Below are positions 26,281-43,966 of a stretch of DNA of 64,000 nucleotides, piece by piece; positions within the stretch are counted from its first letter, which is position 1; each line of letters opens with the position of its first letter. The stretch is taken from NCBI GenBank assembly GCA_949285785.1, contig CASEAG010000028.1, positions 165,161-229,160 on the forward strand, read 5' to 3'. This DNA is from an uncultured Spirochaetales bacterium. GTDB lineage: Bacteria > Spirochaetota > Spirochaetia > Sphaerochaetales > Sphaerochaetaceae. The notes beneath the pieces are model-generated. The model was not told the origin of the DNA. It did no database searches and saw only the letters and a program-made list of their open reading frames with translations. The translations under genes were made by a program, and so were the position numbers.

Positions 26281-26527
26281 ATTGCAGAACCTTCCTCCAC
26301 GAAAATGTCCTGGCGTACCAGCTTCAGGTGCAAGTGCGATGAAGCGGCATTGTCACGTCGTTTGTCGGCAGAAACTGGAGAGTGGAACGGAAAAAGTCCC
26401 TGTCATATGCCGTTTTTGTTAGAAATCTCCATTCCGTATCAGGCATCGCCCATAGGCTATCGGAAAAGATGCTGGATTCTGATAATATACCCAGCAGAGA
26501 AATACCTTCATCGGGGGAGAGAGGTAG

Positions 26528-27619
26528 ATGACGACACAGGACTTCTATCACAATGATGGCCTGAGTGCCATGGATGCGCGCTTCGAGGCGCAGAAGATCG
26601 CATTCGCACCATATGTATTCCAGGCAGCCAGGGCGATGATCGATCTTGGGGTTCTTGCATCGCTCTCAAGATGCGGAGACAAGGGCCTGTCGCTTGAAGA
26701 GATAGAGGCCGAGTGCGGAATATCCGAATACGGTGCGAGGATCCTGACGGAAGCCGGCCTTGGAATCGGCGCGATAAAGCTGAATGACGAAGACAGGTTC
26801 GTCATCGGCAAGATCGGATGCTTCCTGGCAGACGATGCGCTCACGAGAATCAACATCGACTTCATGCAGGACATCTGCTATGAAGGGGCCGCAAAGCTCG
26901 AGGAGAGCATCCAGACCGGAAAGCCCTGTGGACTGAAGGCGTTCGGAGAGAACTGGAATACCATCTACGAAGCCCTCTCGTCTCTGCCTGAAAGGGCAAA
27001 GAGGAGCTGGTTCGCCTTCGACCACAACTATTCCGACAACATTTTCCCTGAAGTGCTCGACATCGTATTCGACCGGCCTGTAGCCGAACTGTATGACATC
27101 GGCGGCAACACCGCCCGCTTCGCCATGACCTGTGCAAGACATGACAAGGACGTCCACGTCACGATCATAGATCTGCCAGGCCAGTGCCGGATGGCACAGG
27201 AGAACATCGCGGCAAACGGGCTGGAACAGAGAATCTCCACTCATGCGGCGAACATGCTCGAACCTACCGGGCTGCCTTCACATGCCGACGTCATCTGGAT
27301 GAGCCAGTTCCTCGACTGCTTCTCTCCTGAGGAGATCACGTCCATCAGCAGAAAGGTCGCCTCGGCCGCCACGGATTCGACCAGGATCTTCGTCCTAGAG
27401 CCACTGACCGACCAGCAGAAGCATCTGGCCGCGACATTCTGCCTGCAGCAGACAAGCCTCTACTTCACGACGATGGCAAACGGCAACAGCAAGATGTATT
27501 CATTCGCGGAGATAGTCCCGGCCATCGAGGCCGGAGGCCTGAGATACGTGGGATCGCATCAGAATCTCGGAATCTACAGCTATACATTACTTGAATTCAG
27601 GAAGAGAGATGAGAATTGA
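26528..27619 (+). CDS. SAM-dependent O-methyltransferase (ApeB-like)
   Basis: N-terminal dimerisation domain (EAQKIAFAPYVFQAAR), LYDIGGNTARFA, IDLPGQ and WMSQFLDCFS. Confidence 0.85.
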   Translation: MTTQDFYHNDGLSAMDARFEAQKIAFAPYVFQAARAMIDLGVLASLSRCGDKGLSLEEIEAECGISEYGARILTEAGLGIGAIKLNDEDRFVIGKIGCFLADDALTRINIDFMQDICYEGAAKLEESIQTGKPCGLKAFGENWNTIYEALSSLPERAKRSWFAFDHNYSDNIFPEVLDIVFDRPVAELYDIGGNTARFAMTCARHDKDVHVTIIDLPGQCRMAQENIAANGLEQRISTHAANMLEPTGLPSHADVIWMSQFLDCFSPEEITSISRKVASAATDSTRIFVLEPLTDQQKHLAATFCLQQTSLYFTTMANGNSKMYSFAEIVPAIEAGGLRYVGSHQNLGIYSYTLLEFRKRDEN

Positions 27620-28265
27620 CGAATTCGCCCTCTGGGCACCGGGGATCGAGACACAGGATGACTGGATGCAATGGTATCATGGCGAGAAGGCCATCGAAGA
27701 TTCGAAGGCAAGCCCCAGGCTGGATTTCGTCTCGCCCCTTGCAGTCAGGCGACTGAGCCAGCTGACGAAAATGACCTGCCACGCCTTCCACCTGCTGTAC
27801 AGGGAGGATGTGGAGGCATTGTACTTCTCCTCGGTGCGTGGGGAGATATCGATCCAGTATGACATCGATGCGGCATATGCCAGAGACCACGAGCTCAAGC
27901 CGGCCACATTCGCCATTTCGGTGTTCAACACGGCACCTGCCCAGGCCACCATACTCTGCAAGACACAGATCCCATACACTCCGCTGTATTCGGGGCAGGA
28001 GAACGTGATCGGGAATCTCTGGAAGGTCTCCACATCATCGATCAGAGCCGGCAGAATGAAGAAGGTCATGCTGGTCTACGCCGAGGAGAGGACTCCGGAC
28101 GAATACAGGAACAACCTCGACTACAGTCTGCTACCTCCGATGTACATCGCCTTGACGGTGGATGCACAGGAAGGAGAGGAGCCTGATGAGGCCGCCCTGT
28201 CATCGCCACAGGCATTCGCTCGATACCTGCTGTCCAGCAGGAGGGAGTCATGGGTCACAGGATAA
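27609..28265 (+). CDS. Beta-ketoacyl synthase chain-length factor (ApeC-like)
   Basis: Motifs RRLSQLTKM, FSSVRGE, FAISVFNTAPAQ and MLVYAEE. Short KS-like protein with no catalytic Cys motif. Confidence 0.8.
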   Translation: MRIDEFALWAPGIETQDDWMQWYHGEKAIEDSKASPRLDFVSPLAVRRLSQLTKMTCHAFHLLYREDVEALYFSSVRGEISIQYDIDAAYARDHELKPATFAISVFNTAPAQATILCKTQIPYTPLYSGQENVIGNLWKVSTSSIRAGRMKKVMLVYAEERTPDEYRNNLDYSLLPPMYIALTVDAQEGEEPDEAALSSPQAFARYLLSSRRESWVTG

Positions 28266-29020
28266 GACTTGCCTTATGCAGCCTGAGGAAGATGTTCTGC
28301 TATGCGTTCTTCGGAGCAGGCGGTCTGTTCATCGGGCTTGTCGTGCTGACTGTGGAGCGGATACTGATCCATCCCGCATCCAGGTACAGGAGAATCGGAA
28401 GGCTCACGATCACATATTCGCACCGCTTCTTCGTGAAGGTGATGAAGCTCCTTGGCCTCATAAGAATCACAGGTCCACTTCCTGACGTATCGGGACTCGA
28501 GGGGAAGATAGTCGCCCCTAACCACCCTTCCCTGATTGATGTGGTCATACTCTTCTCGTTGATTCCAGGTGCCAACTGCATAGTCAATGGAAACCTTACG
28601 AAAGGTCCTCTGCGCTTCATAATAAACCAGCTGTACATAGTGAACTCCGAAGACATCGACATGCTGGTCGAGGACTGCTGCACTTCCCTTACGGCAGGAG
28701 ACACGCTCATCATCTTCCCCGAGGGGACCAGGACAAGAAGGGACAAGCCGATCACGCTCAAACGTGGCACGACACTGATATCGATCATGTCTGGCGCCTC
28801 CATCGTTCCGTTCTTCATCAGGGGAAACGACAAGAAAGGCCTTCAGAAGAAGGACCATTTCTGGAGCATAAACGACGACGGGTATTATACCTACGAGATT
28901 ACAAGAAGTCCTGACGAGCTCGAGGCGGGTTCATACTACACAGGACATCCACGAAACGACTCCATACGCATGATGGAGGATCTCGAGACGATTCTGAGGG
29001 AGAACATACAGCAGCAATGA
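28250..29020 (+). CDS. PlsC-type lysophospholipid acyltransferase (ApeD-like)
   Basis: NHPSLID (HxxxxD) and FPEGTR, with an N-terminal TM segment. Confidence 0.85.
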   Translation: MGHRIRLALCSLRKMFCYAFFGAGGLFIGLVVLTVERILIHPASRYRRIGRLTITYSHRFFVKVMKLLGLIRITGPLPDVSGLEGKIVAPNHPSLIDVVILFSLIPGANCIVNGNLTKGPLRFIINQLYIVNSEDIDMLVEDCCTSLTAGDTLIIFPEGTRTRRDKPITLKRGTTLISIMSGASIVPFFIRGNDKKGLQKKDHFWSINDDGYYTYEITRSPDELEAGSYYTGHPRNDSIRMMEDLETILRENIQQQ

Positions 29021-29937
29021 CACGATATGCATTCCTTTTCTCTGGGCAGGGAGCCCAGTACACCGGCATGGGTCGCGAGATTCATGATGCGTTCCCATCT
29101 GCAAGGAAGGTCTTCGAACTATCCAGTGAGATAAGCGGAAGAGACATCGCCGCTCTCTGCTTCAATGCAGACGAGAGCGAGCTGTCCATGACGGAGAACA
29201 CGCAGATTGCAGTTCTCACATGTGAGCTGGCGACTCTTGCAGTCCTCCAGGAGAAAGGAATCACCCCCTGTGCCGTTGCCGGGTTCTCGCTTGGCGAATA
29301 CGCGGCCCTTGTCGCCGCCGGTGTCATGTCCCCCTCCGATGCGATACGCATCATAAACATTAGGGCCAGGGCCATGCAGGAATCGGTCCCCGCCGGCTGT
29401 GGAGCAATGGCAGCGGTCAAGAAATGTCCGTCTTCGAAGATCGAGGAGATCTGCTCACGGATCCAGGGAGTGTGGCCGGTGAACTACAACAGCCCTGAAC
29501 AGACCGTCATCAGCGGCCTGGGCGACAGCGTCGAGAAGGCGGTCGAATGCCTGAGAGCGGAGAAATACAGATCCGTGATCCTTCCTGTAAGCGCCCCTTT
29601 CCACACCCCGCTGATGGAGAAGGCCCGCAAGGTGCTCGAAGACGAGTTCAGCTCACTCGCCTTCAAAGATTCATCAATTCCTGTCTTCATGGACTACGAC
29701 GGCATGCCTGCCCATGATGCGCATGAGATAAGAAGCAGGCTGCTCCTCCAGACGGTCAGCCCGGTCAGATGGCTGGACATCCAGAACAACCTTGCATCAT
29801 CGGACCCGGATCTCGACTACATCGAGATAGGCCCTGGCCATACGCTTTCATCCTTCCTGTCGAAGACCATAGGCAGGACGGCATCCACGACGAACACGAT
29901 CGAGGAGATCACAATGGCATGTTCCCATGCCGTGTGA
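29017..29937 (+). CDS. fabD: Malonyl-CoA:ACP transacylase
   Basis: Motifs FSGQGAQY, GFSLGEY, NYNSPEQTVISG, LPVSAPFH and PVRW. Confidence 0.9.
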   Translation: MTRYAFLFSGQGAQYTGMGREIHDAFPSARKVFELSSEISGRDIAALCFNADESELSMTENTQIAVLTCELATLAVLQEKGITPCAVAGFSLGEYAALVAAGVMSPSDAIRIINIRARAMQESVPAGCGAMAAVKKCPSSKIEEICSRIQGVWPVNYNSPEQTVISGLGDSVEKAVECLRAEKYRSVILPVSAPFHTPLMEKARKVLEDEFSSLAFKDSSIPVFMDYDGMPAHDAHEIRSRLLLQTVSPVRWLDIQNNLASSDPDLDYIEIGPGHTLSSFLSKTIGRTASTTNTIEEITMACSHAV

Positions 29938-31393
29938 CGTCCCTCTTCTTCGTCCGAAGCACATCAAGTGAGGCTATCAGCCTGTCCCTGGTCTCCTGGG
30001 GAAGTATGACATCGTCCACAAGCAGGGAGTCATGTGCCGGGTACGGGCTATAGAACTCCGCCTTGTATTCTTCTTCCAGACGTCGTCTCTCATCCGCTGC
30101 CATACCGGCCCTGATACGCTTTCCGTGCAGTATCGCAACCGCACCATCTGCACCCATGACAGCGATCTGGGCTCCAGGCCATGCGTATACGAAATCGGCA
30201 CCGAGGCTCTTCGATCCCATTGCGATATAGGCACCACCGAAGGCCTTGCGCAGAATCACGGTCACCATCGGGACCGATGCCTCGGCATATGCATACAGCA
30301 TCTTCGCACCATGGTTGATGATCGCGTTCGCCTCCTGTTCGACACCAGGCATGAATGCCGGAACATCAACGAAGGTGACCAAGGGGATGCCGAAGCAGTC
30401 ACAGAACCTGACAAAGCGGCTCATCTTCATCGCAGCCTTGTAGTCTATGGCACCTGCAAGCTGCCTTGGCTGGTTCGCGACGACGCCAACGGTCCGCCCG
30501 TCAAGTCTGGCAAGGGCCGTGACCGCATTGCGCGCATACAGGCTCTTCATCTCGAATATGCTTCCGCTGTCGAAGACGGCCTCGAGGACATCCATGATGT
30601 CGTATGAACGACGCTCATCCTCAGGAACAATCCCTTCCGGTGTGCGCTGGGGCTGAATCACGGGAACATCGTTCTCCTGACTGCAGGGCAGATACGAGAT
30701 GAACCGTCTGACAGCATCGATACATTCCTTCTCCGTATCCGAGACATGATGTACGACGCCGCTTGTGCCTGCATGTATCCGCCAGCCGCCAAGCTCCTCC
30801 GCACTGCACTCCTGGAAGAGCACGGACTTCGTGACGGCAGGCCCAGTGAGGAACATCTGACCCATCGACTTGACAGTGAACACTGCGTCCATCAGCGCTG
30901 GAGAATAGCAGGCGCCACCGGCTGCAGGGCCCATCACCATGGCGATCTGGGGAATCAGACCGGAATACCTGACATTCCTTCTGAAGATCCGGCCATAGCC
31001 GTCGAGGGAGTCGACACCGGATTCGATGCGTGCACCGCCGCCATCGTTCATCGATATGAAAGGAGAACCGGTGGATGCCGCCATATCAAGGATACGGCAG
31101 ACCTTGCCGGCATGGACCGGTCCAGTCGTCCCCCCTCTGGTGCAGAAGTCCTCCGCTGCGCAGAATACGGTTCTGCCTCCGACAAGGCCATAGCCGGTGA
31201 TGACACCGTCACCGGGACTTGCCCCGTCATCATCACACGAAAAGGCGAACATCTCATGGAACGTCCCCTCGTCGAACAGCAAGGCGATGCGTTCTCTTGC
31301 GCTCATCCTCCCCTTCGCCTTCTGCCGTGCCGAGCAGGCAGGATCCTCAAGTGCTTTTCTCCTGTCGACCAGCGTCTCTTCAGCCTTCGTCAT
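29909..31393 (-). CDS. Acyl-CoA carboxylase carboxyltransferase subunit (PccB/MmdA-like)
   Basis: Motifs ARERIALLFDEGTF, GGGARIESG, GPAAGGACYSPAL, VDVPAF, RKAFGGAY and C-terminal HGNMPL. Confidence 0.9.
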   Translation of the reverse strand: MTKAEETLVDRRKALEDPACSARQKAKGRMSARERIALLFDEGTFHEMFAFSCDDDGASPGDGVITGYGLVGGRTVFCAAEDFCTRGGTTGPVHAGKVCRILDMAASTGSPFISMNDGGGARIESGVDSLDGYGRIFRRNVRYSGLIPQIAMVMGPAAGGACYSPALMDAVFTVKSMGQMFLTGPAVTKSVLFQECSAEELGGWRIHAGTSGVVHHVSDTEKECIDAVRRFISYLPCSQENDVPVIQPQRTPEGIVPEDERRSYDIMDVLEAVFDSGSIFEMKSLYARNAVTALARLDGRTVGVVANQPRQLAGAIDYKAAMKMSRFVRFCDCFGIPLVTFVDVPAFMPGVEQEANAIINHGAKMLYAYAEASVPMVTVILRKAFGGAYIAMGSKSLGADFVYAWPGAQIAVMGADGAVAILHGKRIRAGMAADERRRLEEEYKAEFYSPYPAHDSLLVDDVILPQETRDRLIASLDVLRTKKRDVTRHGNMPL

Positions 31394-31394
31394 G

Positions 31395-32612
31395 TCAACA
31401 CCTCTTGAAGATCAGCGACGTGTTGATCCCTCCGAAGGCGAAGTTGTTGGACATGACATACTGCGCATCAATCGTCCGGCCTGTACCGGTGATGTAATCG
31501 AGCTGGGCACATTCGGGATCGACATCCTTCAGATTTATGTTCGGGCAGAACCAGCCATCCCTCATCATGAGGATGGTCGACCATGCCTCGATCGCTCCGC
31601 AGGCGCCAAGCGTATGCCCCGTATAGTTCTTCAGCGTCGACACGGGAACATCCGGGCCAAAGACATCGTGTACGGCATTCGTCTCGACGATGTCTCCGGA
31701 CACGGTGGCGGTGCCATGCATGTTTATGTATGCGATGTCCTTCGCCTCGATTCCGGCGCTTTCCAGCGACATTCTCATGACACGGGCTATGGTGACTCCG
31801 TTCGGATGCGTGATGTGTACACCATCGGTATTCGTCGCGAAACCTGCGATCTCGGCATAGATTCTGGCGCCTCTTGCGATGGCATGCTCATACTCCTCGA
31901 GAATCAGGGTTCCTGCCCCTTCTCCGACCACAAGGCCATCCCTGTTCCTGTCATATGCCCTGGGAGTGACCTCAGGAGTCTCGTTCAACGTGGAAGCCGA
32001 GAGGATGGAATCGAATACGGCCGCATCTGCAGGTGTAAGCTCCTCGGCGCCACCGGCTATCATGATGTCCTGCACCCCATTCCGGATCGCCTCATAGGCA
32101 TAGCCGATGGACATGCTTCCGGAAGTGCATGCCGTATTGGTCGTGATCAGACGGCCCGTAAGCCCGTAGCGGACCGAGAGATTGGCGGCACAGGTCTGAG
32201 GCATCGCCTTGATGTATGTCGTCGGAGACACGCTCTTCGAGGAGTAGTTCAGGAGGAGGCCATAGAAGTCCAGCAGTCCATCGACATTGCCGGCAGAGGA
32301 GCCGTAGGCGATGCCGGCCCTTCCCGCCTTGAGCTCGTCGCTACCCAGCAGGCCGGCCTTCTCGAGGGCGGTTTCGGTTGCGTTGAGCGCCAGGATGGCG
32401 ACTCTTCCCATCCCTCTGAGCTCCTTGCGGGAGAAGTCCCTAAGCTGTGCGGTGACAGGAGCGGCAAGCGTCGTCCTCAAGCCCTTGTACTTCTGCCAGT
32501 CGGGAATGCTCACGACCTTGTTATGGCATGCCTTTAGACATGCAAGCACATCCTCATCCTCGATTCCCAGGGAAGAGACCACGCTTCCTCCCGTGACTAC
32601 GACTCTTCTCAT
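31395..32612 (-). CDS. fabF: Beta-ketoacyl-ACP synthase (FabF-type, ApeR-like)
   Basis: Cys-His-His triad in NTACTSG, HGTAT and GHTLGACG. C-terminal SNNFAFGG. Confidence 0.9.
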   Translation of the reverse strand: MRRVVVTGGSVVSSLGIEDEDVLACLKACHNKVVSIPDWQKYKGLRTTLAAPVTAQLRDFSRKELRGMGRVAILALNATETALEKAGLLGSDELKAGRAGIAYGSSAGNVDGLLDFYGLLLNYSSKSVSPTTYIKAMPQTCAANLSVRYGLTGRLITTNTACTSGSMSIGYAYEAIRNGVQDIMIAGGAEELTPADAAVFDSILSASTLNETPEVTPRAYDRNRDGLVVGEGAGTLILEEYEHAIARGARIYAEIAGFATNTDGVHITHPNGVTIARVMRMSLESAGIEAKDIAYINMHGTATVSGDIVETNAVHDVFGPDVPVSTLKNYTGHTLGACGAIEAWSTILMMRDGWFCPNINLKDVDPECAQLDYITGTGRTIDAQYVMSNNFAFGGINTSLIFKRC

Positions 32613-33343
32613 CAGCACATTCCTCCATTTATGGATATGACCTGCCTAGTGATGTATCCCGCATCGTCACCAAGCAGGAAGGCGACCAGAGAGGCTATCT
32701 CGTCCGGCTTTCCAAGCCTGTTCATCGGAACCATCTCGAGCATTCTGTCCAGAGGAAGCCCTTGGATCATGTCAGTCTCTATTATTCCGGGAGCGACGAC
32801 ATTCACGGTTATGTTGCGCGTCGCCACCTCCAGTGCCAGCGCCTTGGCCGCGCCGATCAGGCCGGCCTTCGCCGCGCTGTAGTTGACCTGTCCCTTGTTG
32901 CCCATGACGCCTGAAACCGACGAGATGGCCACGACACGGCCACGACGCTTCTTGCACATGCTCATCATCGCAGGCCGCAGGACATTGTAGAACCCATCAA
33001 GATTTGTATGTATGACGGAATCCCAGTCATCATCATCCATCGCGACGAGAAGGTTGTCACGGCAGATGCCGGCATTGAGCACTATGCCCCAGAACGCACC
33101 GTTCTCCTGGATGTATCCCTCTATCGCATTCCGGCATTCCTCACGGTCCGCTATGTCGAACACGATGCTCCCTGCCTGTCCTCCAAGGCCACGGATCTCC
33201 TCCTCGAGAGCCTTAGCCCTATCGATGGAGCTCTTTCTGCAGTTCAGGACGACATGGTATCCTTCGGATGCCAGACGAAGGCTCACTGCCCTGCCGATTC
33301 CGCGTAGTGCGCCTGTGACCAGAACGCTTTTACCCTTATCCAT
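32612..33343 (-). CDS. fabG: 3-oxoacyl-ACP reductase (ApeQ-like)
   Basis: Motifs TGALRGIG, NAGICRD, GQVNYSAAK and VAPGIIETDM. Confidence 0.9.
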   Translation of the reverse strand: MDKGKSVLVTGALRGIGRAVSLRLASEGYHVVLNCRKSSIDRAKALEEEIRGLGGQAGSIVFDIADREECRNAIEGYIQENGAFWGIVLNAGICRDNLLVAMDDDDWDSVIHTNLDGFYNVLRPAMMSMCKKRRGRVVAISSVSGVMGNKGQVNYSAAKAGLIGAAKALALEVATRNITVNVVAPGIIETDMIQGLPLDRMLEMVPMNRLGKPDEIASLVAFLLGDDAGYITRQVISINGGMC

Positions 33344-33812
33344 CAATCACCTCTTCAATGAAATCCATATCGTCAACGGAGAGCACAAGCAGATCGCCTT
33401 CGGCAACCAGCTCGTCACCGGAGAGCACCTGTCCATGGAACGAGAATATCCCTCCTGGGAGAATCGCATCCGAATGCACCTGTATCGTGACCTCCTCGTC
33501 CTCCTGGAACCATGCCCTTGAACACCTGAAGTCGGACACCCTCAGAATGAATCCGATGGACGGCTCCTCGCTATGGTTGTAGTCCATGATCTGCGAATAC
33601 GCGCTGATCGTCTGTGCAATGAGCTCGAACGACACATATGTAGGCGTACGACCATCGCGGAAGAACGGAGAGCCGGCATCGAGCGTGGCGTGGCATGTCA
33701 GTCCGTCATCCTGCATGGAAAGCACGCCATCGATCAGCAGCATGTCCTCGCGATGCGGCACGACGAAGCCCATGTTCTCCTTTCCCATCAATGGCAGCTC
33801 TATGTTCTTCAT
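33336..33812 (-). CDS. Hotdog-fold 3-hydroxyacyl-ACP dehydratase (ApeP-like)
   Basis: Motifs VPHREDMLLID, ELIAQ and GFILRV. GGAGG RBS. Confidence 0.8.
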   Translation of the reverse strand: MKNIELPLMGKENMGFVVPHREDMLLIDGVLSMQDDGLTCHATLDAGSPFFRDGRTPTYVSFELIAQTISAYSQIMDYNHSEEPSIGFILRVSDFRCSRAWFQEDEEVTIQVHSDAILPGGIFSFHGQVLSGDELVAEGDLLVLSVDDMDFIEEVIDG

Positions 33813-34945
33813 CCCTCGACCTCCATGAGTAAAAGCGAGTTGGAACCGCCGAATGCAAATGCATTCGAAATCGCGGCATGTATCTCGCACCGCTGCCCGG
33901 CCTTCACGAAATCAAGCTGGGGAATGGTCTCGTCCAGCTCTCCATCGAATACATGTGGAGGCAGCAGACAGGGCTGGCTGGATGCAAGGCACATCGCGCT
34001 TATGACGGTGCCGAACGCACCTGCAGCGCCCAGAGTATGTCCGGTGATGGACTTCGTGCTCGACACCTTCACTCCATGAGGGAAGACCTGTGAGATCACC
34101 TGGGCCTCCATCGCATCGTTGACTCTGGTACCGGTTCCATGGAGATTCACATAGCCGATGTCCTCCGGTCTGCGGACCGCCATGGCCAATGCCCTGTGGT
34201 AGATGTCGATCACGGCACTGCCCTGCGGATCCGGGCTGGTCATGTTGTATCCATCGCTGGACTCGCCGAAGCCGGTGATCATGACAGGAAAGTCGAACAC
34301 CTTGTCCCTGGATATGAAATACAGGGCGGCACCGTCCCCGAGCGTCGTGCCCTTCCTGTTCCTGCTGAACGGATCGACTCTTTCGTCGCTGATCGCAGAC
34401 AGGCAATGGAAGCCGGCGGTGATGATGTCGCTTGCGAAATCGATTCCACCCACCAGCATCGCGTCCACCTCACCGGCTGCGATGAGATCCATTGCACGTA
34501 TAGCGGCGACATTGCCTGAAGAGCAGGCGGTGGCCACTGCGAAGGAAGGCCCCTCTAGCCCGAGTCCGGCAGCGACCTTCTCGACAGGATGATAGGGATT
34601 CTGGAAGTCGACATGATAGTCGCCGAACGTCCCGGTCGCGAGAAAGGACGCGTGTTCCCTGGTGGCGTTCTGGCTGTTGTAGTCGCATCCACCAAGCGCG
34701 ACGCCGACCCTTTCAGCCCCATATCTGGAAACAAGGGCAGAAGCCTGCGCTCTGCATGCTTCGACCGCCTTGGCGAGAATCGCATTGAACACATCGGGAT
34801 CCATGGACGGATACCTGACGACGAGGTGCCCGTCTTCATTGCGCACGAAATGGCTGGTATCGCCTGCGAGACAGGCAGCCATGAAGCTGTCGACATCGTC
34901 GCCCAGAGGACTGATCACGACAGGATAGGACATATGGTATCTCAT
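33809..34945 (-). CDS. Beta-ketoacyl-ACP synthase (ApeO-like)
   Basis: Motifs ATACSSG, HGTGTRVNDAME, KSITGHTLGAAG and SNAFAFGG. Confidence 0.85.
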   Translation of the reverse strand: MRYHMSYPVVISPLGDDVDSFMAACLAGDTSHFVRNEDGHLVVRYPSMDPDVFNAILAKAVEACRAQASALVSRYGAERVGVALGGCDYNSQNATREHASFLATGTFGDYHVDFQNPYHPVEKVAAGLGLEGPSFAVATACSSGNVAAIRAMDLIAAGEVDAMLVGGIDFASDIITAGFHCLSAISDERVDPFSRNRKGTTLGDGAALYFISRDKVFDFPVMITGFGESSDGYNMTSPDPQGSAVIDIYHRALAMAVRRPEDIGYVNLHGTGTRVNDAMEAQVISQVFPHGVKVSSTKSITGHTLGAAGAFGTVISAMCLASSQPCLLPPHVFDGELDETIPQLDFVKAGQRCEIHAAISNAFAFGGSNSLLLMEVEG

Positions 34946-35514: not shown

Positions 35515-35564
35515 CTCCTCATCGTCCCCTCATCCTGATCGATCGACGGGATGACAGGACATCC

Positions 35565-36056: not shown

Positions 36057-38313
36057 ACGCGGTGGTGATGCCGATCATCACCGTCACTCCGAATATGTGC
36101 ACCGGGCGGAATGAGCTCAAGGCAAGCGTACCGAAGCTCAATGCCGTCGTGACATAGCACATCGCAATGGCGAATATCGGGGAGTGCTCGCTATTGCCTG
36201 CAAATACCATGTAGTCCAGCCCGAGTCCTATCACGAGAAGCATACCGACCGCAAAGAAGAAGTCGAGATCCTGGCCAAGAAGCGGCATGCTCGACAACAG
36301 GACCGCCACGATCACGACAGGTGACATCGCAAGCTTCAGCCCCTTCTTCCTGAAGACCGCTATGGTCAGGACGATTATGATGACGAAGGCGATCACGAAG
36401 ATCTTCAACAGAATCATCGTCAGCTCGTCGAGCTGATGGTTTATGTCGTCCACCTTCTGGAAATAGGTCACGCCATCATATGACGCGGCAATGGACTTCA
36501 TGTCCACGGATGGATCGATGTCGAATATCATGACGACGATGTAGTATCTGTCGTCGATCCGGCCCGCGATGAGCTGGCCGAGCAGATCTCCCAGGGAGGC
36601 GGGAAGATCATCGAAGTACAGGATTCCATTGGCATCGTCCAGTTCCGACATCGCGGCTGTTGAATCGATTCCCAGCCTGTCGCACTGGTCCTGGAGGAGA
36701 GGGCGGAGGCTGCGGGCCACCTCGAGGCTCCTGAGCTGGCTGCTGGGTGGCGGAATGAAGAGCGAAGGCGACAGATAACCTCCGACGAGGCCCTCGTCCT
36801 GAAGCTGTGCAAGCCGTCGTGAGAACTCGTATTCATTCTCTCTGGCATCCGCCTCGTCGACACCTTCCACAATCGCATAGTTCGAGCTCATGAAGCCCAT
36901 CACGCTGCCGACGGTGATCTCGCTTTCGAGCAGTCTGTCGCTCATCTGGTAAAGGTCGGCGACGCTGTTCCTGACATGCAGGTCCTTTGCCGTGAACGCA
37001 AGCATGCACAGGGAGACCACGACCAGCGGAAGCAGGAAGGACCTGTGCTCAGGCATGGGCTTCAGCCTCCAGGCCAGCGCCTTCTCATTGACCATCCCGG
37101 GACGGATCAGCAGCGGGAAGATGCCCATGACGACCAGGAAGGATCCCAGAAGACCGAAGAACGAGAACACGCCCACCTGCCGCAGGATGTCATACGGGCT
37201 GAAGACGATGAGTGCGTAGCAAAGGACAGTGGAGGCGAAGCTGACTGCGAGGTTCTTGGACAGGAGGCGTGTGATGGAGAACGAATCCTCCCCCTTCTCT
37301 CTCCTGGCATAGGCAAGATAATAGTGAATCGAATAGTCTATGCTGGTACCGATCAGCGAAGTGCCGAATATCATGGTGAGGATGTGGATGTCCTTGAAGA
37401 AAACGCACAACGAGGCGAACGCGGCACCGAGCGAGAAGGCGATTCCAAGAAGGAAGAGGCCGATCACATGGACATTGCGCAGCAGAATGAGGAACATCAC
37501 CACGATCAGGAGAATCGATATTCCGGTTATGATGGCGATCTCCTTCTGGGCGTTGGAGGCGCTCTCGAAGCTGTGGAACGGGAAACCGGAATAGCTTACG
37601 CTGAGACCGGGCGTGGACGATGCGATGTCGTCCCCTACTTCATATATGACTCCGACTCCGCCATCAGTGTTTGTGATGTCGAGGCTCTCCTGCGACAGCG
37701 CACCCTGTAGCAGGACATACCACATTCCCTCGTACTGGGTTGCAAGCACCCCCTCCTTCGGCATCACGGGGGATATTGAAGAAGCCTTTTCGGCAAGATC
37801 CGTCACGATTGCGCTGTCCACAAGGAACGGGTCCCTGTCGAGGGAATCGAGCGAAGCCAGCGAGAAGGGAGAATAGATCGCCGCAAGCGAATTCATCTGG
37901 AACTGCCCAGGGGATTCGAGGATCTCCTCCTGCACCGACTCGGGCAGCAGCGCGTATCTGTATCCATCGAGCATCCTGGAGACTTCTGACATGTCGAAGG
38001 AGCCGGTACTCGAAAGCGAGAGCTCATCGAACACGCCCGTTCCTTCCATCCTTTCATGGAACTCGACGGCCGCAGCCCTTGCAACCTCGAAGTCCTCATG
38101 GCCGAAGAGGATGTTCGCGCTCCCGTTCTGCTTCGCGACGAACTGCCCTTCCGCCTTGCTTACGCCCTCCGGGATTCCGTATGTAGGGATCATGGACATG
38201 AAGTCCGTAGTGATCGAGACACGGCCGGACAGGACGAATGCGACCGACAGGACGGCAAGTATGAGGAAATAGGCCACTGCAGCAATGCTATATTTCGAAA
38301 AGTGCATTCTCAT
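36019..38313 (-). CDS. MMPL/RND-like exporter (ApeM-like)
   Basis: Two TM bundles with FGTSLIGTSIDYSIHY and VIGLGLDYMVF, plus TALSFGTLALSSF. Confidence 0.85.
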   Translation of the reverse strand: MRMHFSKYSIAAVAYFLILAVLSVAFVLSGRVSITTDFMSMIPTYGIPEGVSKAEGQFVAKQNGSANILFGHEDFEVARAAAVEFHERMEGTGVFDELSLSSTGSFDMSEVSRMLDGYRYALLPESVQEEILESPGQFQMNSLAAIYSPFSLASLDSLDRDPFLVDSAIVTDLAEKASSISPVMPKEGVLATQYEGMWYVLLQGALSQESLDITNTDGGVGVIYEVGDDIASSTPGLSVSYSGFPFHSFESASNAQKEIAIITGISILLIVVMFLILLRNVHVIGLFLLGIAFSLGAAFASLCVFFKDIHILTMIFGTSLIGTSIDYSIHYYLAYARREKGEDSFSITRLLSKNLAVSFASTVLCYALIVFSPYDILRQVGVFSFFGLLGSFLVVMGIFPLLIRPGMVNEKALAWRLKPMPEHRSFLLPLVVVSLCMLAFTAKDLHVRNSVADLYQMSDRLLESEITVGSVMGFMSSNYAIVEGVDEADARENEYEFSRRLAQLQDEGLVGGYLSPSLFIPPPSSQLRSLEVARSLRPLLQDQCDRLGIDSTAAMSELDDANGILYFDDLPASLGDLLGQLIAGRIDDRYYIVVMIFDIDPSVDMKSIAASYDGVTYFQKVDDINHQLDELTMILLKIFVIAFVIIIVLTIAVFRKKGLKLAMSPVVIVAVLLSSMPLLGQDLDFFFAVGMLLVIGLGLDYMVFAGNSEHSPIFAIAMCYVTTALSFGTLALSSFRPVHIFGVTVMIGITTAFICALCAERRER

Positions 38314-38929
38314 CTGATTCAAGCTCCCTCATCTCGACATCCGCGAACTCGTAGAGAATGCTGTCTCCACTCGTCTCGACCATTGTCACTGATTCAAGCG
38401 TCCGGTCCCCGGTTATCGTTATCGACCCGACGAACGAGGCAATCGTCTCGTCCACTGGCACAAGGCCAATCACCCACTTTCCATCATTCTCGATGAAGAA
38501 TGCATCGAAGACGGTGTCGACCTGCGAGAAGTCTCCGCTGAAGACGCTCTCGATCGCCTGTGCCATGGCCAGGTAGACCAGGTTCCCGGAGACATCCATC
38601 TGCACCATTCGGGTGCCGACCTGCTGGAACATGGTCGATCTACCCACGACCATCAGCGATGCATATGGCTTCATCGTCTGCCATGCGATTCCGTAGCCCG
38701 GCCTGACGATCATCCTGCCAGAGGATTCGAGACTTCTGCCAAGACGGCCGATCGTCCTCGTCTGGACATAGTCGGCGACAATCGGATCTCCTGTGAAGGT
38801 CTCCTCGACGCGGATGAACCGCTCGTCGCTGCGGTCAAGAGGACTGTCGAACAGTCCGGCTCCATCAGCTGCGGCCAGGCCGGTCAGGACCGACATGGCC
38901 AGGATTGCGCATACGAATAGACGCTTCAT
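38288..38929 (-). CDS. LolA-like periplasmic carrier (ApeL-like)
   Basis: Signal peptide, YVQTRTI...LESSGRMI..PGYGIAWQTMKP, WVIGLVP and ETSGDS. Confidence 0.75.
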   Translation of the reverse strand: MKRLFVCAILAMSVLTGLAAADGAGLFDSPLDRSDERFIRVEETFTGDPIVADYVQTRTIGRLGRSLESSGRMIVRPGYGIAWQTMKPYASLMVVGRSTMFQQVGTRMVQMDVSGNLVYLAMAQAIESVFSGDFSQVDTVFDAFFIENDGKWVIGLVPVDETIASFVGSITITGDRTLESVTMVETSGDSILYEFADVEMRELESDENALFEI

Positions 38930-39336
38930 CGCCGTGCTCCTCCTTCGATCGCCTCGATGATGAAATCCGGGATGTCAAGAACGCCATTGCCCTCCAGGTC
39001 TGTCAGCATCTGGACGCTCTCTCCCGTCGTGGTCAGGGCCCCAGTGGTCTTGTCGACGATCTCGAAACGGAAACGTATGAGCACGTCGTATGAGACGAGG
39101 CTCGTCCTCACCACGACCGCCTGTCCCGGCCTGAGCGGCTTCCTGTACTTCGCCTTGTTCCTGACCAGTGGAAGCATGTAGCCATGACCTGCCAGGGTCA
39201 TATAGCCTATGCCCAGCGATTCGAGGAGCATCGACCGGCCCATCTCGAAATAGTCGAAGTACCTGCCATTCCATACGACTCCCATCGGGTCGCAGTCGTT
39301 GAACTCTACTCTGATCTCCCTTTCCGCACTGATCAT
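38926..39336 (-). CDS. Acyl-CoA/ACP thioesterase, 4HBT/YbgC family (ApeK-like)
   Basis: Motifs FNDCDPMGVVWNGRYFDYFEMGR and KYRKPL. Confidence 0.85.
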   Translation of the reverse strand: MISAEREIRVEFNDCDPMGVVWNGRYFDYFEMGRSMLLESLGIGYMTLAGHGYMLPLVRNKAKYRKPLRPGQAVVVRTSLVSYDVLIRFRFEIVDKTTGALTTTGESVQMLTDLEGNGVLDIPDFIIEAIEGGARR

Positions 39337-40262
39337 CTCGCCACCGCCCAGAAATCATAGAAGTTGAACCACTGGCACGGGTTCTTCTTCAGAATCGATT
39401 CGATGAATTCGACGTATCTCTGACAGGAGGACCTGACCACGGCCTCCCTCTGTGAACGCCCGATTCCCTCATAATCAAGCATGTTCGTCCGGATATGCAC
39501 CGTATAGCGCTTGGTGAACTCGATGTCCTTTGTGCGTACGCATGTGGCGAAGAACGACGGGACACCGAGAAGAAGCGGCAGATAGAAGGCCCCGAACGGG
39601 AAACAGGCAGGGGCTCCCAGGAAGTCGACGACGACGTTCCTGTCGCTTGAACGGTCACCGGCGATGACCACGATACCGCCCCTGTCGAGCACGCCCTGTA
39701 TCCTCTCGATGCTGTCGACGGAGATGTCCCTGATGCTGAGGATGTCCATCATCGAGTCGGCGTTGAGCTTCTTCAGCATGTGGTTGAACCTGTCGGTGAT
39801 CGAGAAGTCCACGAGACTGAGTACCGGCACCTGACTGCCCAGGTACTCCCTGTTGAGCTGGTCGGAAAGAGCCCTGAGCTCCTCGCTGCTGCCGATATGC
39901 GATACGATGAGCAGAACACCCTGCCCCTTCTTCAGATAGCTGTTCATCAGATCGATGTCTCCGACGGTCTTCAGCCTTCTGCAGTCGATCTTGCCTATCC
40001 AGCTCTCGCACTTCTCGATCAGGGTTATCGAAAACGACAGGAATATCCTCCAGACACCCACCCTGTATCTGACAATCGGGGAGATTCTCCTGCAATAGTC
40101 CTTCATCACCACTCTGGCGTTCCGGGAGAACATGTAGTAGAAGAAGCTGACCGGGAAGGCGATCAGCACGAGGACGGGATGCGGCAGAATCCTGACCATC
40201 ATGGCCAGCATCATCATCGCATGTGCGCTGCCGACCTCCTCTATCTGTCTCCAGATTCTCAT
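39333..40262 (-). CDS. LpxL-like acyltransferase (ApeJ C-terminal half equivalent)
   Basis: Motifs SHIGSSEELRAL, AGDR, FPFGAF and QWFNFYDFW. ATGA overlap with the GT2 gene. Confidence 0.8.
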   Translation of the reverse strand: MRIWRQIEEVGSAHAMMMLAMMVRILPHPVLVLIAFPVSFFYYMFSRNARVVMKDYCRRISPIVRYRVGVWRIFLSFSITLIEKCESWIGKIDCRRLKTVGDIDLMNSYLKKGQGVLLIVSHIGSSEELRALSDQLNREYLGSQVPVLSLVDFSITDRFNHMLKKLNADSMMDILSIRDISVDSIERIQGVLDRGGIVVIAGDRSSDRNVVVDFLGAPACFPFGAFYLPLLLGVPSFFATCVRTKDIEFTKRYTVHIRTNMLDYEGIGRSQREAVVRSSCQRYVEFIESILKKNPCQWFNFYDFWAVAR

Positions 40263-40999
40263 CTTCCCCGCCTCCTTCTCCTGAGCATCGCCGGAATGTG
40301 GAGTGGCAATGCAATGCACAGTCTGGTGAACACGATCGAGATGCGCACGTTGTCCTTCACCGGATGGAAATGGGACAGCGCATCCTGTGGATATGTCACC
40401 TTGACAGGCAGAGATGTTATGCCGATCCCCTTCCAGTACATCCTGACAAGGACCTCGATGTCGAATCCCATCCTGTAGTCCCAATGCCCACGGGCCACCA
40501 GCGGCGCGAGTGTCGCCACGGGATAGATCCTGAAACCGCACATGCAGTCCACTATCGAAGTGCGATCCATCGTCACGATATGGGCGAACGTGTTGGCGAC
40601 CTTCCGTCCATTCAGTCTTTCCTGCGGCACGGAACTGTCGAAGACGGGATGCCCGATGACGGCGCAATCCGGACTCATGCGGGAGGCCTCGAGGAACCGT
40701 GGTACGGCCTCCAGGTCGTGCTGTCCGTCGGCATCTATCTGGAAGACATGCGTCAGCCCCATGGCGGACGCGGCCTCGATGCCACGCACCACCGCCGCCC
40801 CTTTCCCGCTGTTTCTGGAAAGGGTCAGGACCGTGACGAGACCAGACAGTCCCCTGGCCTTCTCCAGCCATTGGCGGGTCTCGTCATCGCTGCCGTCATC
40901 GACCAGGATGATGTCAAAGCCGTATTCAAGAAGCGTGCCCACCTCCTGGTATGCCGACTTGCCATGGTTGTATACTGGAAGAAGAAAGGCGTACTTCAT
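40259..40999 (-). CDS. Glycosyltransferase family 2 (ApeJ N-terminal half equivalent)
   Basis: Motifs LPVYNH, VDDGSD, NSGKGAA, QIDADGQH, DCMCGFRIYP and SHFHPVKDNVRIS. Confidence 0.85.
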   Translation of the reverse strand: MKYAFLLPVYNHGKSAYQEVGTLLEYGFDIILVDDGSDDETRQWLEKARGLSGLVTVLTLSRNSGKGAAVVRGIEAASAMGLTHVFQIDADGQHDLEAVPRFLEASRMSPDCAVIGHPVFDSSVPQERLNGRKVANTFAHIVTMDRTSIVDCMCGFRIYPVATLAPLVARGHWDYRMGFDIEVLVRMYWKGIGITSLPVKVTYPQDALSHFHPVKDNVRISIVFTRLCIALPLHIPAMLRRRRRGR

Positions 41000-41352
41000 A
41001 GGTCACCCACCATGATCTTCCCGAACGAGAGCTTCTCACCTTCATGTGTGAAGAACGAGAAGCGGACCAGCCCCTCTCCAATCATGGATATCTCGAGCCT
41101 GCATCGTCTCTCCGGGACAAGAGGCTTGACGAACTTGCACTGGCGTATCGCATCGACACGCACACGATCCGGCAGGACCTCGTCCAGGGTGTTTGCAAGA
41201 ATGTCTATCTCCGCGACTGCAGGCAGGAGACGGAAGGCCTCGAAATGCTGTCTGAAATACGGGCTTGATGCCGGAACGGTGAATTCCATTTCCCATCTTC
41301 CATCTCCGGTCCGGCTCAGAGAGTGCACGACAAGTGAATCGTATCCTTTCAT
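40996..41352 (-). CDS. FabA/FabZ-like dehydratase (ApeI-like)
   Basis: Motifs PYFRQHFEAFRLLPAVAEID and KFVKPLVP. Confidence 0.75.
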   Translation of the reverse strand: MKGYDSLVVHSLSRTGDGRWEMEFTVPASSPYFRQHFEAFRLLPAVAEIDILANTLDEVLPDRVRVDAIRQCKFVKPLVPERRCRLEISMIGEGLVRFSFFTHEGEKLSFGKIMVGDL

Positions 41353-43301
41353 ACAACAGGCTCCTTGAGGATTGCATCGACCTCCTCCATCTGCACCTTG
41401 CCCATCTCGTTGCGGGGAATGGCATCCACGAACCGCCATTTCCTCGGGATGGTCACGCCTTCCAGACTGTTCGAGAGAATGTTCCTGAACACCTTGACCA
41501 CCTGTCCATGACTCATGCCCTCGAAGCGGGCCCTCGCCTCATCGCACAGCACTGCGACGACAGCCACATAGACCCCTCTGCTCTCCGAATCCTGGCGGAC
41601 AGCCAGTGCATCCTCGACAAGCCCGGTCTGCACAACCCTGTCGGCGATCTCCACCAGCGAGACCCGCTTCTCGGCGATCTTGACTATCGAATCCCGCCTT
41701 CCAAGCAGTCTGAATCTTCCGTCCTCCCGGATCTCCACCACATCGCTCGTCGTGAAGGGACACTCGCCATGGACTCCGTCGCAGCTGACGACAAGACAGC
41801 CGTCATCGTCGATGGATATCTTCACACTGTGGTTGACGGTCCACCAGGATGCCTCCTCGTCGACATCGACCCTGCGTGCTATCGCCCCGGTCTCGGTGCT
41901 CCCGTAGATTTCGAATGGGAAGCGTCCGAACACTTCTGCGACCTTCTTCGCCTCATGCCGATGAAGCGGAGAGCCGGCGACGATCATGCTGACATCCCTG
42001 GACGGTATGCCATGCGAGATGGCATCATCGCTGATGGCCAGGCGAAGGAACGAAGGCGTCGATATCAGCAGCAGGCGGTGATCGCCCAGGCCGGCAAGCT
42101 CGTCAGGACCGAGTATCCGCCTCCTCGAGATCGGCACCGCATGGATGAACGGCTTTATTATCGAGAAGACGATTCCGAAGGCGTGCTGGGGCGGTACGCT
42201 CGAGACCAGGAGCCTCTTCTGGAAATCCTTCCTGTAGTACTCTCCAAGCGAATCGTTGTCATCCTCGAGCTCCCACAGGAAATGCTCGCATGCCTTCGGC
42301 TTTCCAGTGGAACCTGAGGTGTACAGCACTATTCTGGCCTCCGGTCCGATGACAGGCATCTCCAGATCGAGGTCACACTTCTCTTCAGACAGGATATCGC
42401 CGATGTCCATGGCACCTTCCAGATGCCGGTCGGACAGACATGCCATATCCCCGTCGTCCATCTGCCTCATGAAATCGATTGTGAGATTGCTGGGCACGAG
42501 CGCGACCTTGCCGACCTGCAGAATCGAGCACAAGGCGAGGATGAAGTTCCAGTTGTCCTCCACGTTCACGACGACCTTGCCCTCAGGGCGGCGCGAAAGC
42601 GCATCACGAAGCCTTGCGCTCTCGATCAGGAAGTCCTTCCAGCATTTGAAGACGCCGTCCTCGAAACGGCCGTCGTATGCAAGTATGCAGTCATCCTCGC
42701 GGGAGGTGCGGCTCATTTGTGAAATGAACACAGGCCTGCGCAGTCTCCGCTGGACATGCACCCTGACGATGAACTCGAGTGCGAACAACAGGCCTATGAG
42801 CATGTATGTCAGGAAGCCGTTGTACAGCGTCCAGAACTCGACAGGCATGAAGAGTGCAGTCACAAGGGCGGCGGAGCCGTTGAGGACGAAGAATGCGCAC
42901 CAGACCATGGTCACCTTGCGGCAGTAGCGCATTATCGCATTCCTGTGGGCACCATACCGGAGCGTACTGTCGCCGAGATTGGCGAAGTCGTAGACGATCC
43001 CGCCAGGCTTCGAGAAAAGCGATCCGCCAAAAGTCGCAAGAAGTACGGCGTTGACCAGGACCGGATAGAACTTCAAAGCCACCTCGCTGGCGAACACCAT
43101 CACGCATATCGCGATCACGGCAAGGGCGATCGTCGTCACGCGCGACCTGTCATCACTCCCCTTCAGTATCAGCATGGACAATGCGAAGACGGCGATGACA
43201 ATCCCGATGACCCTCACCGGGAGCTTGAATATGACCAGAGCTAGGAAAACGAAAACAGGGTAGGCGATCGCAAGGACGCCTACCACAATCTTCCGTATCA
43301 A
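41349..43301 (-). CDS. Fusion of a COG4648-like membrane domain (ApeG-like) and an adenylate-forming ligase (ApeH-like)
   Basis: N-terminal ~190 aa with KFYPVLVN, YCRKVTMVWCAFFVLNG and WTLYNGFLTY. C-terminal YTSGSTGKPK, YGSTETG, GRRDSIVK and IPRNEMGK. One uninterrupted frame. Confidence 0.85.
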   Translation of the reverse strand: MIRKIVVGVLAIAYPVFVFLALVIFKLPVRVIGIVIAVFALSMLILKGSDDRSRVTTIALAVIAICVMVFASEVALKFYPVLVNAVLLATFGGSLFSKPGGIVYDFANLGDSTLRYGAHRNAIMRYCRKVTMVWCAFFVLNGSAALVTALFMPVEFWTLYNGFLTYMLIGLLFALEFIVRVHVQRRLRRPVFISQMSRTSREDDCILAYDGRFEDGVFKCWKDFLIESARLRDALSRRPEGKVVVNVEDNWNFILALCSILQVGKVALVPSNLTIDFMRQMDDGDMACLSDRHLEGAMDIGDILSEEKCDLDLEMPVIGPEARIVLYTSGSTGKPKACEHFLWELEDDNDSLGEYYRKDFQKRLLVSSVPPQHAFGIVFSIIKPFIHAVPISRRRILGPDELAGLGDHRLLLISTPSFLRLAISDDAISHGIPSRDVSMIVAGSPLHRHEAKKVAEVFGRFPFEIYGSTETGAIARRVDVDEEASWWTVNHSVKISIDDDGCLVVSCDGVHGECPFTTSDVVEIREDGRFRLLGRRDSIVKIAEKRVSLVEIADRVVQTGLVEDALAVRQDSESRGVYVAVVAVLCDEARARFEGMSHGQVVKVFRNILSNSLEGVTIPRKWRFVDAIPRNEMGKVQMEEVDAILKEPVV

Positions 43302-43303
43302 GG

Positions 43304-43552
43304 CTATTTCTCCGAGTCTGCCACCAACAGCTCCACCAGATCCTGGAGGGTCCGGATTTCACGGAACATTCCGGCATCGACCTTCGGAGGCAGATATTCC
43401 CGGAACTTGACGATCATCTCGGCAGCGTCGATCGAATCGAGCTCCAGATCCTCGACGAGCCTGGACTCGGGAGTGATCTCATCCCTGTCGATGTCGAACT
43501 CGTCGACCAGCACGTCGACTATCCTCTGGTAAAGATCATCCTTCAGACTCAT
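43304..43552 (-). CDS. Acyl carrier protein (ApeF-like)
   Basis: Motif DLELDSIDA. Confidence 0.9.
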   Translation of the reverse strand: MSLKDDLYQRIVDVLVDEFDIDRDEITPESRLVEDLELDSIDAAEMIVKFREYLPPKVDAGMFREIRTLQDLVELLVADSEK

Positions 43553-43815
43553 CTTGCGCTCTCCTTTGCATCCGCGATGTAAGAAGCAAGTGTGTTCACG
43601 CTTCTGAAATACTCGTTGTTGGCTCCACTGCCAGATTTGAATGCGACACCATACTTCTTCTTGATCGCAATGCCGAGCTCCAGAGCATCCACACTGTCAA
43701 GGGAAAGTCCCTCGCCGAACAGCGGCTCATCGTCGCCGATGTCTTCAGGAGTCACACCATCCAGCTCAAGGCTGGAGATGATCAGCTGCTTGATCTCGTT
43801 CTTCAGTTCTTCCAT
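43549..43815 (-). CDS. Acyl carrier protein (ApeE-like)
   Basis: Motifs PLFGEGLSLDSVDALELG and FRSVNTLASYI. Confidence 0.9.
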   Translation of the reverse strand: MEELKNEIKQLIISSLELDGVTPEDIGDDEPLFGEGLSLDSVDALELGIAIKKKYGVAFKSGSGANNEYFRSVNTLASYIADAKESAR

Positions 43816-43867
43816 CACCCTCTCCCCAATTGAACATTCGATTTCATTGAATCATGTATCAGCAGAT

Positions 43868-43896
43868 ACACTACAGGTTAAGCATTCCGTTGTCAA
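43868..43896 (-). promoter_or_regulatory. Sigma70-like promoter of the minus-strand ape-like operon
   Basis: TTGACA-N17-TAGTGT about 50 nt upstream of the first ACP. Confidence 0.65.
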
Positions 43897-43966
43897 TTTC
43901 GAATCATCGCATAACCGTTCGACAAGGCCTGTGGCGTACGACATCTTACAGAATTGTAATTTCCGC

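Follow-up and report, generated by a model that had tools for sequence, protein, structure and literature searches.

We uncovered a 20-gene cluster related to aryl-polyene (APE) biosynthesis systems at positions 26528–43815 of a 64,000-nucleotide window, that is, the whole stretch of DNA that was analyzed. It comes from an uncultured Spirochaetales bacterium whose genome assembly (G000 hereafter) comprises 2.05 Mb in 40 contigs and is 96% complete. An earlier note, made from the letters of this DNA, had assigned roles to 20 genes; all of these were recovered at the positions it gave, and open reading frame (ORF) listing and translation found every frame open, with no frameshifts and no internal stops. 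The gene lengths agree with independent gene calls on an orthologous contig, and the GC fraction of the cluster (0.55–0.58) equals the genome mean (0.572). The identities given below come from Pfam and NCBIfam scans of the window proteins, supplemented at several sites by direct reading of motifs.

The cluster consists of a plus-strand arm (26528–29937) and a minus-strand operon (43815 down to 29909), which converge such that their tails overlap by 29 nt. The plus-strand arm opens with an ApeB-type S-adenosylmethionine-dependent O-/C-methyltransferase (26528–27619), which matches PF21212 and PF00891 and resembles the FlxJ family (NF053543, 449 bits, under the cut-off of 560); its orthologs, at 50–60% identity, occupy the same position in the related genomes and loci G024, G097, G169 and L096. 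It is followed by an ApeC-type chain-length factor (CLF; 27591–28265, with the likely start Met at 27609), a ketosynthase (KS)-like protein without the active-site Cys (PF13723, 80.8 bits), and by an ApeD-type lysophospholipid or PlsC-type acyltransferase (28250–29020; PF01553, TIGR00530-like). The last gene of the arm codes for FabD, the malonyl-CoA:acyl carrier protein (ACP) transacylase (29017–29937; PF00698, 133 bits; TIGR00128, 232 bits), in which the GFSLGE motif, the Q of GQGAQ, and the R and H can be read.

The minus-strand operon begins with two ACP genes of PF00550: that in the ApeE position comes first (43549–43815; NF006617/PRK09184, 89.5 bits, over the cut-off of 70), followed by that in the ApeF position (43304–43552; NF003757/PRK05350, 79.5 bits, over the cut-off of 65). 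Next is an ApeG–ApeH fusion (ApeGH; 41349–43301), which combines an N-terminal multi-pass membrane domain with an adenylating acyl-ACP synthetase (PF00501, TIGR02372-like) bearing the motifs YTSGSTGKPK and YGSTE. Its stop codon overlaps, in an ATGA, the start of the ApeI-type dehydratase (DH) partner (40996–41352; a weak match to the ApeI-like PF22818). The two functions of the Escherichia coli ApeJ protein are here encoded by separate genes, namely a GT2 glycosyltransferase (40259–40999; PF00535, 67 bits) and an LpxL-type acyltransferase (39333–40262; PF03279, 32.7 bits). There follow an ApeK-type 4HBT thioesterase (38926–39336; PF13279, 72.5 bits), an ApeL-type LolA-like periplasmic carrier (38288–38929; PF03548; NF053544 LolA2_flexi, 71 bits, below cut-off), an ApeM-type MMPL/RND transporter (36019–38322; PF03176, HpnN- and HAE3-like) and an ApeN-type DUF3261 lipoprotein, which is LolB-like (34942–35514; PF11659, 56 bits) and shows a lipobox-like LVAC. 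Lying antisense between apeM and apeN is a gene for an Sfp-type 4′-phosphopantetheinyl transferase (PPTase; 35469–36056, plus strand), whose matches to PF22624 and PF01648 are below cut-off and whose family motifs are present.

The remainder of the operon codes for an ApeO-type KS with the triad Cys-Asn-His (33809–34945), an ApeP-type DH (33336–33812; a weak match to the ApeP-like PF22817), whose start overlaps the apeO stop in an ATGA, and an ApeQ-type 3-ketoacyl-ACP reductase (KR; 32612–33346). The KR has adh_short and KR domains, a YSAAK motif, and matches to FabG2 (TIGR01831, 336 bits) and FlxB (286 bits). The ApeR-type KS that follows has the triad Cys-His-His (31395–32618; NF006587/PRK09116, 589 bits, over the cut-off of 470). 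One nucleotide after its stop begins the last gene, for a two-domain carboxyltransferase (CT) of the PccB/MmdA/12S type (29909–31393; PF01039, 513 bits). Four other readings of the region were rejected as spurious: the ORFs 35519–35977(−), 43592–44860(+) and 45278–47260(+), and the N-terminal 203 residues of ORF 39333–40871(−), all of which are frames that lie opposite to or overlap real genes.

Placement in the aryl-polyene family

APE clusters are considered the biosynthetic gene cluster family with the widest distribution in bacteria. Several window proteins have structural matches among the APE enzymes of Xenorhabdus doucetiae: the ApeO-like KS best matches 6qsp_A (204 bits, versus about 125 bits for FabF), the sole PDB match of the CLF is 6qsp_B, the ApeC of that bacterium, and the best match of the ApeP-like DH is 6qsr_B, with the catalytic His of its VVPHRED motif aligning with that of LPHEAP in ApeP. 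The ApeI-like DH recovers 3esi first and X. doucetiae 6qsr_A second. In a maximum-likelihood tree of 109 KS sequences from 80 loci and relatives, the window ApeR belongs to a clade of 30 KSs with 100% support, every one of which has an APE gene context, and the window ApeO falls in an ApeO clade with the same support. The FabF proteins, including that of the same-genus genome G002, are separate from both. A grouping of the KSs with primary FabF/FabB had been named in the earlier note as an outcome that would count against its reading; the tree, the structural matches and the curated cut-offs passed by the ApeR-like KS and both ACPs instead bear out its match to apeB–apeR.

The gene content likewise corresponds one to one with apeB–apeR in the E. 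coli CFT073 table, save that ApeG and ApeH are fused and ApeJ, annotated there as a glycosyltransferase/acyltransferase, is split (PMC8253772). The attachment and export set of ApeD, ApeJ, ApeK, ApeL, ApeM and ApeN is present throughout, in the order of that table. The two dedicated ACPs are followed by the membrane and AMP-binding fusion, the homologous ApeG and ApeH parts of which are adjacent in other APE loci. The clusters of E. coli CFT073 (apeA–R, c1204–c1186), X. doucetiae and Acinetobacter baumannii thus share with that of the window their apeB–apeR content, the matching KS clades and the lack of an enoyl reductase (ER). On this sequence evidence the cluster is an intact member of the APE family and not a set of primary FabF/FabB-type genes. 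We further judge, with a probability of roughly 0.7, that it is a functional cluster for the biosynthesis, attachment and export of APE lipids, of a lineage-specific “self-supplied” type. The view of the earlier note that this is the best candidate for an undescribed system in the window was overstated: it is a lineage variant of a widespread family, and antiSMASH “arylpolyene” clusters have already been listed, without analysis, for Treponema_D sp900541945 in metagenome surveys (PMC8863827, PMC10904984). In the literature, we found no description of the variant with a CT, FabD and PPTase, or of a link to the loss of type II fatty-acid synthesis (FAS II).

Within the family of the host, an APE-type KS is present in 8 of 258 species genomes, which belong to three genera. 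The same architecture recurs in G016 (locus L096), G024, G169 and, without fabD, G097, with protein identities of 23–75%, and is also carried by two metagenome contigs; the locus L098 shows the arm from the CT to apeB. The shared features are the CT directly after apeR, the convergent apeB-C-D(-fabD) arm, the antisense PPTase and the ApeGH fusion. The last is full-length in G024, G097 and G169; in L001, from a metagenome-assembled genome (MAG) of Fibrimonadaceae, the two parts lie in different frames, and elsewhere they form two adjacent pieces. In the clusters of genus g7 (G024 locus, 5173–6501; G169 locus, 25239–23932) ApeGH is directly followed by a second adenylation gene of the ApeH type, one that has no membrane domain.

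Outside this family the picture differs. Of 29 APE loci drawn from Proteobacteria, Fibrobacterota, Melainabacteria and other phyla, not one shows a CT, FabD or PPTase at the corresponding positions. The nearest KS relatives outside the family are those of G516, from another family of the same class, and of L001, at 65% and 61% identity, respectively; both clusters are collinear with that of the window and devoid of the CT and FabD. That of G516 has the antisense PPTase, and its ape genes all run in one direction. Hence, the PPTase is the older addition, and the CT, fabD and the inversion are specific to the family of the host. Compared with the E. coli cluster, that of the window adds the CT, FabD and antisense PPTase, where E. 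coli uses AcpT and FAS II; it also differs in its inverted, convergent apeB–D arm, fused ApeGH, split ApeJ, lack of apeA and Cys-Asn-His ApeO, and in residing in a host without FAS II. A sample of 401 genomes of the phylum yielded an APE-type KS in two further families. In G511 and G466 (family f18, genus g52), closed genomes of 2.7–2.8 Mb from a sister family, only homologs of apeN-O-P-Q-R occur together (loci L108/L109 and L113/L114); the other members of an APE set did not appear within 36 kb, and the organization differs from that of the window cluster.

Host gaps and the supply of malonyl units

The two KS genes of the cluster are the only ones in G000, and its FabD is the single FabD match. 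A tblastn search of G000 with the operon ACP-FabK-FabD-FabG-FabF-AccC-AccD-AccA of a same-genus relative recovered only cluster genes and the housekeeping AcpP, and the accC model for biotin carboxylase had no matches; no FabF, FabK, AccC or AccA/D was thus found outside the cluster. The genome keeps AcpP (C39:109038–109280, beside rnc) and AcpS (C31:116973–117338). These two proteins without FAS II are the usual kit of fatty-acid scavengers, and their retention fits a host that takes up external fatty acids.

The carriers of the cluster provide a clean natural experiment. In the genera g1 (that of the host) and g7, which lack FabF and AccC, fabD lies inside the cluster, whereas in genus g37, which has FabF, FabD and AccC in a normal operon elsewhere, the otherwise identical cluster is without fabD. 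Since only the clusters of hosts without FAS II contain fabD, there is good comparative evidence that the cluster copy replaces the missing housekeeping FabD. APE formation in E. coli is reported to require the orphan PPTase AcpT as well as malonyl units that fatty-acid synthesis also uses (PMC8253772), and the first of these requirements accounts for the private PPTase of the cluster. PPTase orthologs occupy the same antisense position in G024, G097, G169, L096 and G516, and the orthologs match PF01648. Hence, we infer that the added genes make the pathway independent of the missing FAS II. To our knowledge, APE biochemistry has so far been done entirely on Proteobacteria, which lend the pathway their FAS II, acetyl-CoA carboxylase (ACC) and orphan PPTase. 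The claim in the earlier note that the cluster, unlike its proteobacterial prototype, carries its own extender-supply and activation enzymes is accordingly well founded as regards fabD and the PPTase, and hypothetical as regards the CT.

The CT is a full two-domain protein (PDB matches 7w5u and 1xnw at about 484 bits, 1on3 at 449 bits) and the only PF01039 protein of G000, where neither a biotin carboxylase nor a biotin carboxyl carrier protein was found. The only biotin system of this genome is an OadA-type oxaloacetate decarboxylase alpha subunit, in which PYC_OADA and HMGL-like domains are joined by three or more tandem biotinyl domains, together with the OadB subunit of a Na+ pump. The gene for OadA is split over two contig ends at the biotinyl repeat (C34:1350–3425 and C6:1–417), and that for OadB follows (C6:427–1635). 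The OadA proteins of relatives have two or three tandem biotinyl domains. Given a CT without a biotin carboxylase and OadA as the sole biotin protein, we propose a transcarboxylase-like supply of malonyl-CoA: the CT would take the carboxyl group from carboxybiotin on OadA and pass it to acetyl-CoA, the net reaction being oxaloacetate + acetyl-CoA → pyruvate + malonyl-CoA. Such a hybrid oxaloacetate:acetyl-CoA transcarboxylase, needing neither ATP nor a biotin carboxylase, is a possible but tentative solution for these fatty-acid-auxotrophic, spirochaete-like gut bacteria.

The Propionibacterium transcarboxylase (12S + 5S + 1.3S) offers the same parts list, with the CT corresponding to 12S, and the 5S-type domain and biotinyl carrier to OadA. 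Unlike in that enzyme, the latter parts belong here to a membrane Na+ pump that is encoded elsewhere and is also present in genomes without the cluster, and the proposed acceptor is acetyl-CoA rather than propionyl-CoA. Another parallel is furnished by actinomycete angucycline type II polyketide synthase clusters (e.g. baiA11/baiA12), which similarly embed a PPTase and a lone PccB/12S-type carboxyltransferase, presumed to act in precursor supply (PMC7284819). Their hosts, unlike G000, have full ACC/propionyl-CoA carboxylase biotin carboxylase systems and FAS II, and the compounds made by these clusters are aromatic polyketides.

Several points tell against this use of the CT. OadA is found in all relatives, whether or not they carry the cluster, such that co-occurrence lends the CT–OadA pairing no support, and genus g37, whose ACC is normal, retains the CT, which may hence have a task other than the replacement of ACC. 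The principal rival explanation is that it does not supply malonyl-CoA at all: it could be the subunit of an MmdA-type decarboxylase that feeds carboxybiotin from (methyl)malonyl-CoA to the OadB pump, or have some other role, with malonyl-CoA arising by a different route, for instance malonate uptake and an acyl-CoA ligase. The best NCBIfam match of the CT is indeed mmdA (TIGR01117, 582 bits, below cut-off), and its nearest homologs outside the clusters, at about 50% identity, are of the acyl-CoA carboxylase beta or methylmalonyl-CoA carboxyltransferase type from Clostridia and other taxa. The OadB-type pump that a decarboxylase would serve is at hand in G000, the persistence of the CT in g37 would be as expected if it does not supply malonyl-CoA, and a FadD-like ligase that adjoins the cluster would suit the malonate route.

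However, in other genera this ligase does not accompany the cluster, and no source of malonyl-CoA other than the CT was found in G000 by the operon tblastn and accC model searches. Moreover, the CT keeps its position across three genera, with orthologs at 50–58% identity. Among six genomes tested for PF01039, the CT was present in the three carriers of the cluster and absent from G013 and G006, which have neither the cluster nor FAS II; G002 had only proteins of the AccA/D type. These patterns tie the CT to the APE genes, and we therefore consider the rival explanation unlikely, if worth keeping in view. We also looked for a substrate marker in the Ile that the CT has at the position of PccB D422. 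The substitution D422I broadens PccB toward acetyl-CoA. In this CT the Ile turned out to be uninformative, as 107 of 120 homologs share it, including ordinary MmdA-like proteins.

Predicted pathway and alternative readings

By homology with characterized APE systems, the ApeGH fusion would adenylate an aromatic acid and load it onto the ApeE ACP, whereupon ApeR and the ApeO:ApeC KS–CLF pair would extend this starter with malonyl-ACP, the KR ApeQ and the ApeI:ApeP DH leaving each unit as a double bond. ApeB would methylate the aryl head. ApeK, ApeD, the GT2 glycosyltransferase and the LpxL-type acyltransferase would join the acyl chain with its anchor, a glyco- or phospholipid, and ApeM, ApeL and ApeN would carry the product to the outer membrane. 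Comparative genomics adds to this scheme the activation of both ACPs by the Sfp-type PPTase, the formation of malonyl-ACP by the cluster FabD and, putatively, the carboxylation of acetyl-CoA to malonyl-CoA by the lone CT. With no ER in the cluster, the chain is predicted to stay a conjugated polyene. In the APE lipids of X. doucetiae, the conjugated acyl chain is anchored by galactosamine-phosphate-glycerol (bioRxiv 10.1101/2020.12.19.423268). By analogy, the product should be an aryl-polyene acyl chain, methylated and joined to a glyco- or phospholipid, that is exported by ApeM, ApeL and ApeN. As the starter, 4-hydroxybenzoate or an aromatic acid like it is probable, albeit a guess: chorismate synthase is present in G000, making chorismate-derived 4-hydroxybenzoate possible.

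The absence of an ER, asserted in the earlier note, holds for the cluster, where the KR is the sole short-chain dehydrogenase/reductase and no ER domain occurs, and no FabK was found in the genome, although the genome was not searched with hidden Markov models of FabI, FabL and FabV. Several points weigh against the reading as a functional, self-supplied APE lipid cluster. Among the sequencing runs that cover the region, which are metagenomes, none of RNA was found, and an aromatic or tyrosine ammonia-lyase (PF00221) is absent from G000 and six relatives. The same note had given both KSs an intact Cys-His-His triad and had called the cluster complete. The former is true of the ApeR-like KS, whose C/H/H columns are all occupied; the ApeO-like KS is Cys-Asn-His, reading SDGYNMT where relatives have SDAYHIT (DGYNMT at residues ~231–236). 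His occupies this column in 25 of 27 ApeO-type sequences, and Asn only in G000 and the same-genus G016. The PPTase retains the motifs FNVSHS, GCDLQ and WAMKESYVK, but in all five PPTases of family f1 the signature is G-x-D-x-Q, with the Mg-binding Glu replaced, as against the canonical G-C-D-I-E of the G516 ortholog.

As to completeness, all apeB–apeR functions are present, yet the term overstates the case, since an apeA-type lipoprotein is missing. L096 (14839–15270, minus strand), L098 (5088–5573, minus strand), G097 and G024 have beside the cluster a small, conserved protein bearing a signal peptide and assigned to no Pfam family, which in L096, L098 and G097 adjoins apeB, in the apeA position; no homolog exists in the whole G000 assembly. 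The ORF 26143–26556, upstream of the methyltransferase gene, was rejected as its equivalent, being dissimilar to the lipoprotein of the relatives and of non-protein-like composition. Together, the Asn of ApeO, the D-x-Q of the PPTase and the missing apeA may mean that the activity is reduced or altered.

Taken further, these features could indicate that the cluster is decaying or altered in G000, such that it yields only short polyenes through ApeR alone, or nothing. In A. baumannii ApeO is the long-chain KS, and the polyenes formed by ApeR alone have at most about four double bonds (PMC8358021). The chain length in the window system is therefore uncertain, given that in ApeO Asn replaces the first catalytic His, a change confined to the genus of the host. 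Nevertheless, we regard decay as improbable: all 20 reading frames are intact and of ortholog-like length, the D-x-Q is conserved in the family rather than peculiar to G000, and an E. coli apeA deletion is still pigmented (PMC8253772). That the Asn of ApeO is shared with an independent same-genus MAG with every gene in place argues for a tolerated or adaptive change rather than a recent lesion.

The other two alternatives fare far worse. The loss of FabF, FabD, FabK and ACC outside the cluster, along with the presence in it of KS, KR, DH, FabD, ACP and acyltransferase genes, might suggest a surrogate fatty-acid synthase making ordinary membrane acyl chains for a host that lost FAS II. This is highly improbable, however, as neither the cluster has an ER nor the genome a FabK, and the KSs lie in the ApeR and ApeO clades, away from FabF. 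The cluster further carries an adenylating enzyme of the aryl-acid type, a methyltransferase and Lol/MMPL-type export genes. FabF, FabD and the cluster are all missing from G006, G007 and G013, genomes of the same genus, from which it follows that the lineage can do without synthesis, and genus g37 has FAS II and the cluster side by side; the AcpP and AcpS of G000 have been read above as signs of scavenging. A flexirubin-type pigment cluster, as in Bacteroidota, which the named matches to FlxJ, FlxB and LolA2_flexi might evoke, can be set aside with similar assurance, although DarA and DarB were not searched for: all three matches are below their cut-offs, the missing ammonia-lyase argues against a tyrosine route, the KS clusters in the tree with APE KSs of Proteobacteria and Fibrobacterota, leaving the one Bacteroidales APE-context KS (L070) outside the clade, and the GT2, LpxL-type and PlsC-type enzymes fit the attachment set of APE lipids.

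If the reading as a self-supplied APE lipid cluster is right, the variant shows what an APE pathway needs when its host lacks FAS II, ACC and an orphan PPTase. It also implies that gut bacteria with small genomes, which scavenge their fatty acids, nonetheless devote resources to a polyene lipid of the outer membrane, presumably as protection against oxidative stress, and it raises the question of an ATP-independent route to malonyl-CoA. In practical terms, the cluster, being self-contained, would lend itself as a cassette for making APEs in a heterologous host, and the Cys-Asn-His ApeO a natural variant with which to probe the first catalytic His in KS–CLF enzymes.

Genes flanking the cluster

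Beyond the small lipoprotein, the flanks show no conservation between genera. Since they differ in this way, the FadD-like ligase, a YhbY-like gene and a gene for a 229-residue signal-peptide protein were not counted as parts of the cluster. The last (43967–44656, minus strand) is separated by 148 nt from the first ACP gene, upstream of which it is located, with a promoter-like site at 44710–44682; the protein, which ends in ...VQYVF and is possibly a small outer-membrane beta-barrel, has no Pfam matches and no homolog beside the cluster in other genera. The N-terminal motif of flagellin was not found in G000. Upstream of the plus-strand arm is a gene for a pyrophosphate-type phosphofructokinase (24531–26219, plus strand), of which about 60 near-identical versions (95–99%) are present in ENA metagenome assemblies; as these are 552 residues long, its true start is probably 10 codons downstream. 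The many near-identical copies indicate that the organism is common in its habitat.

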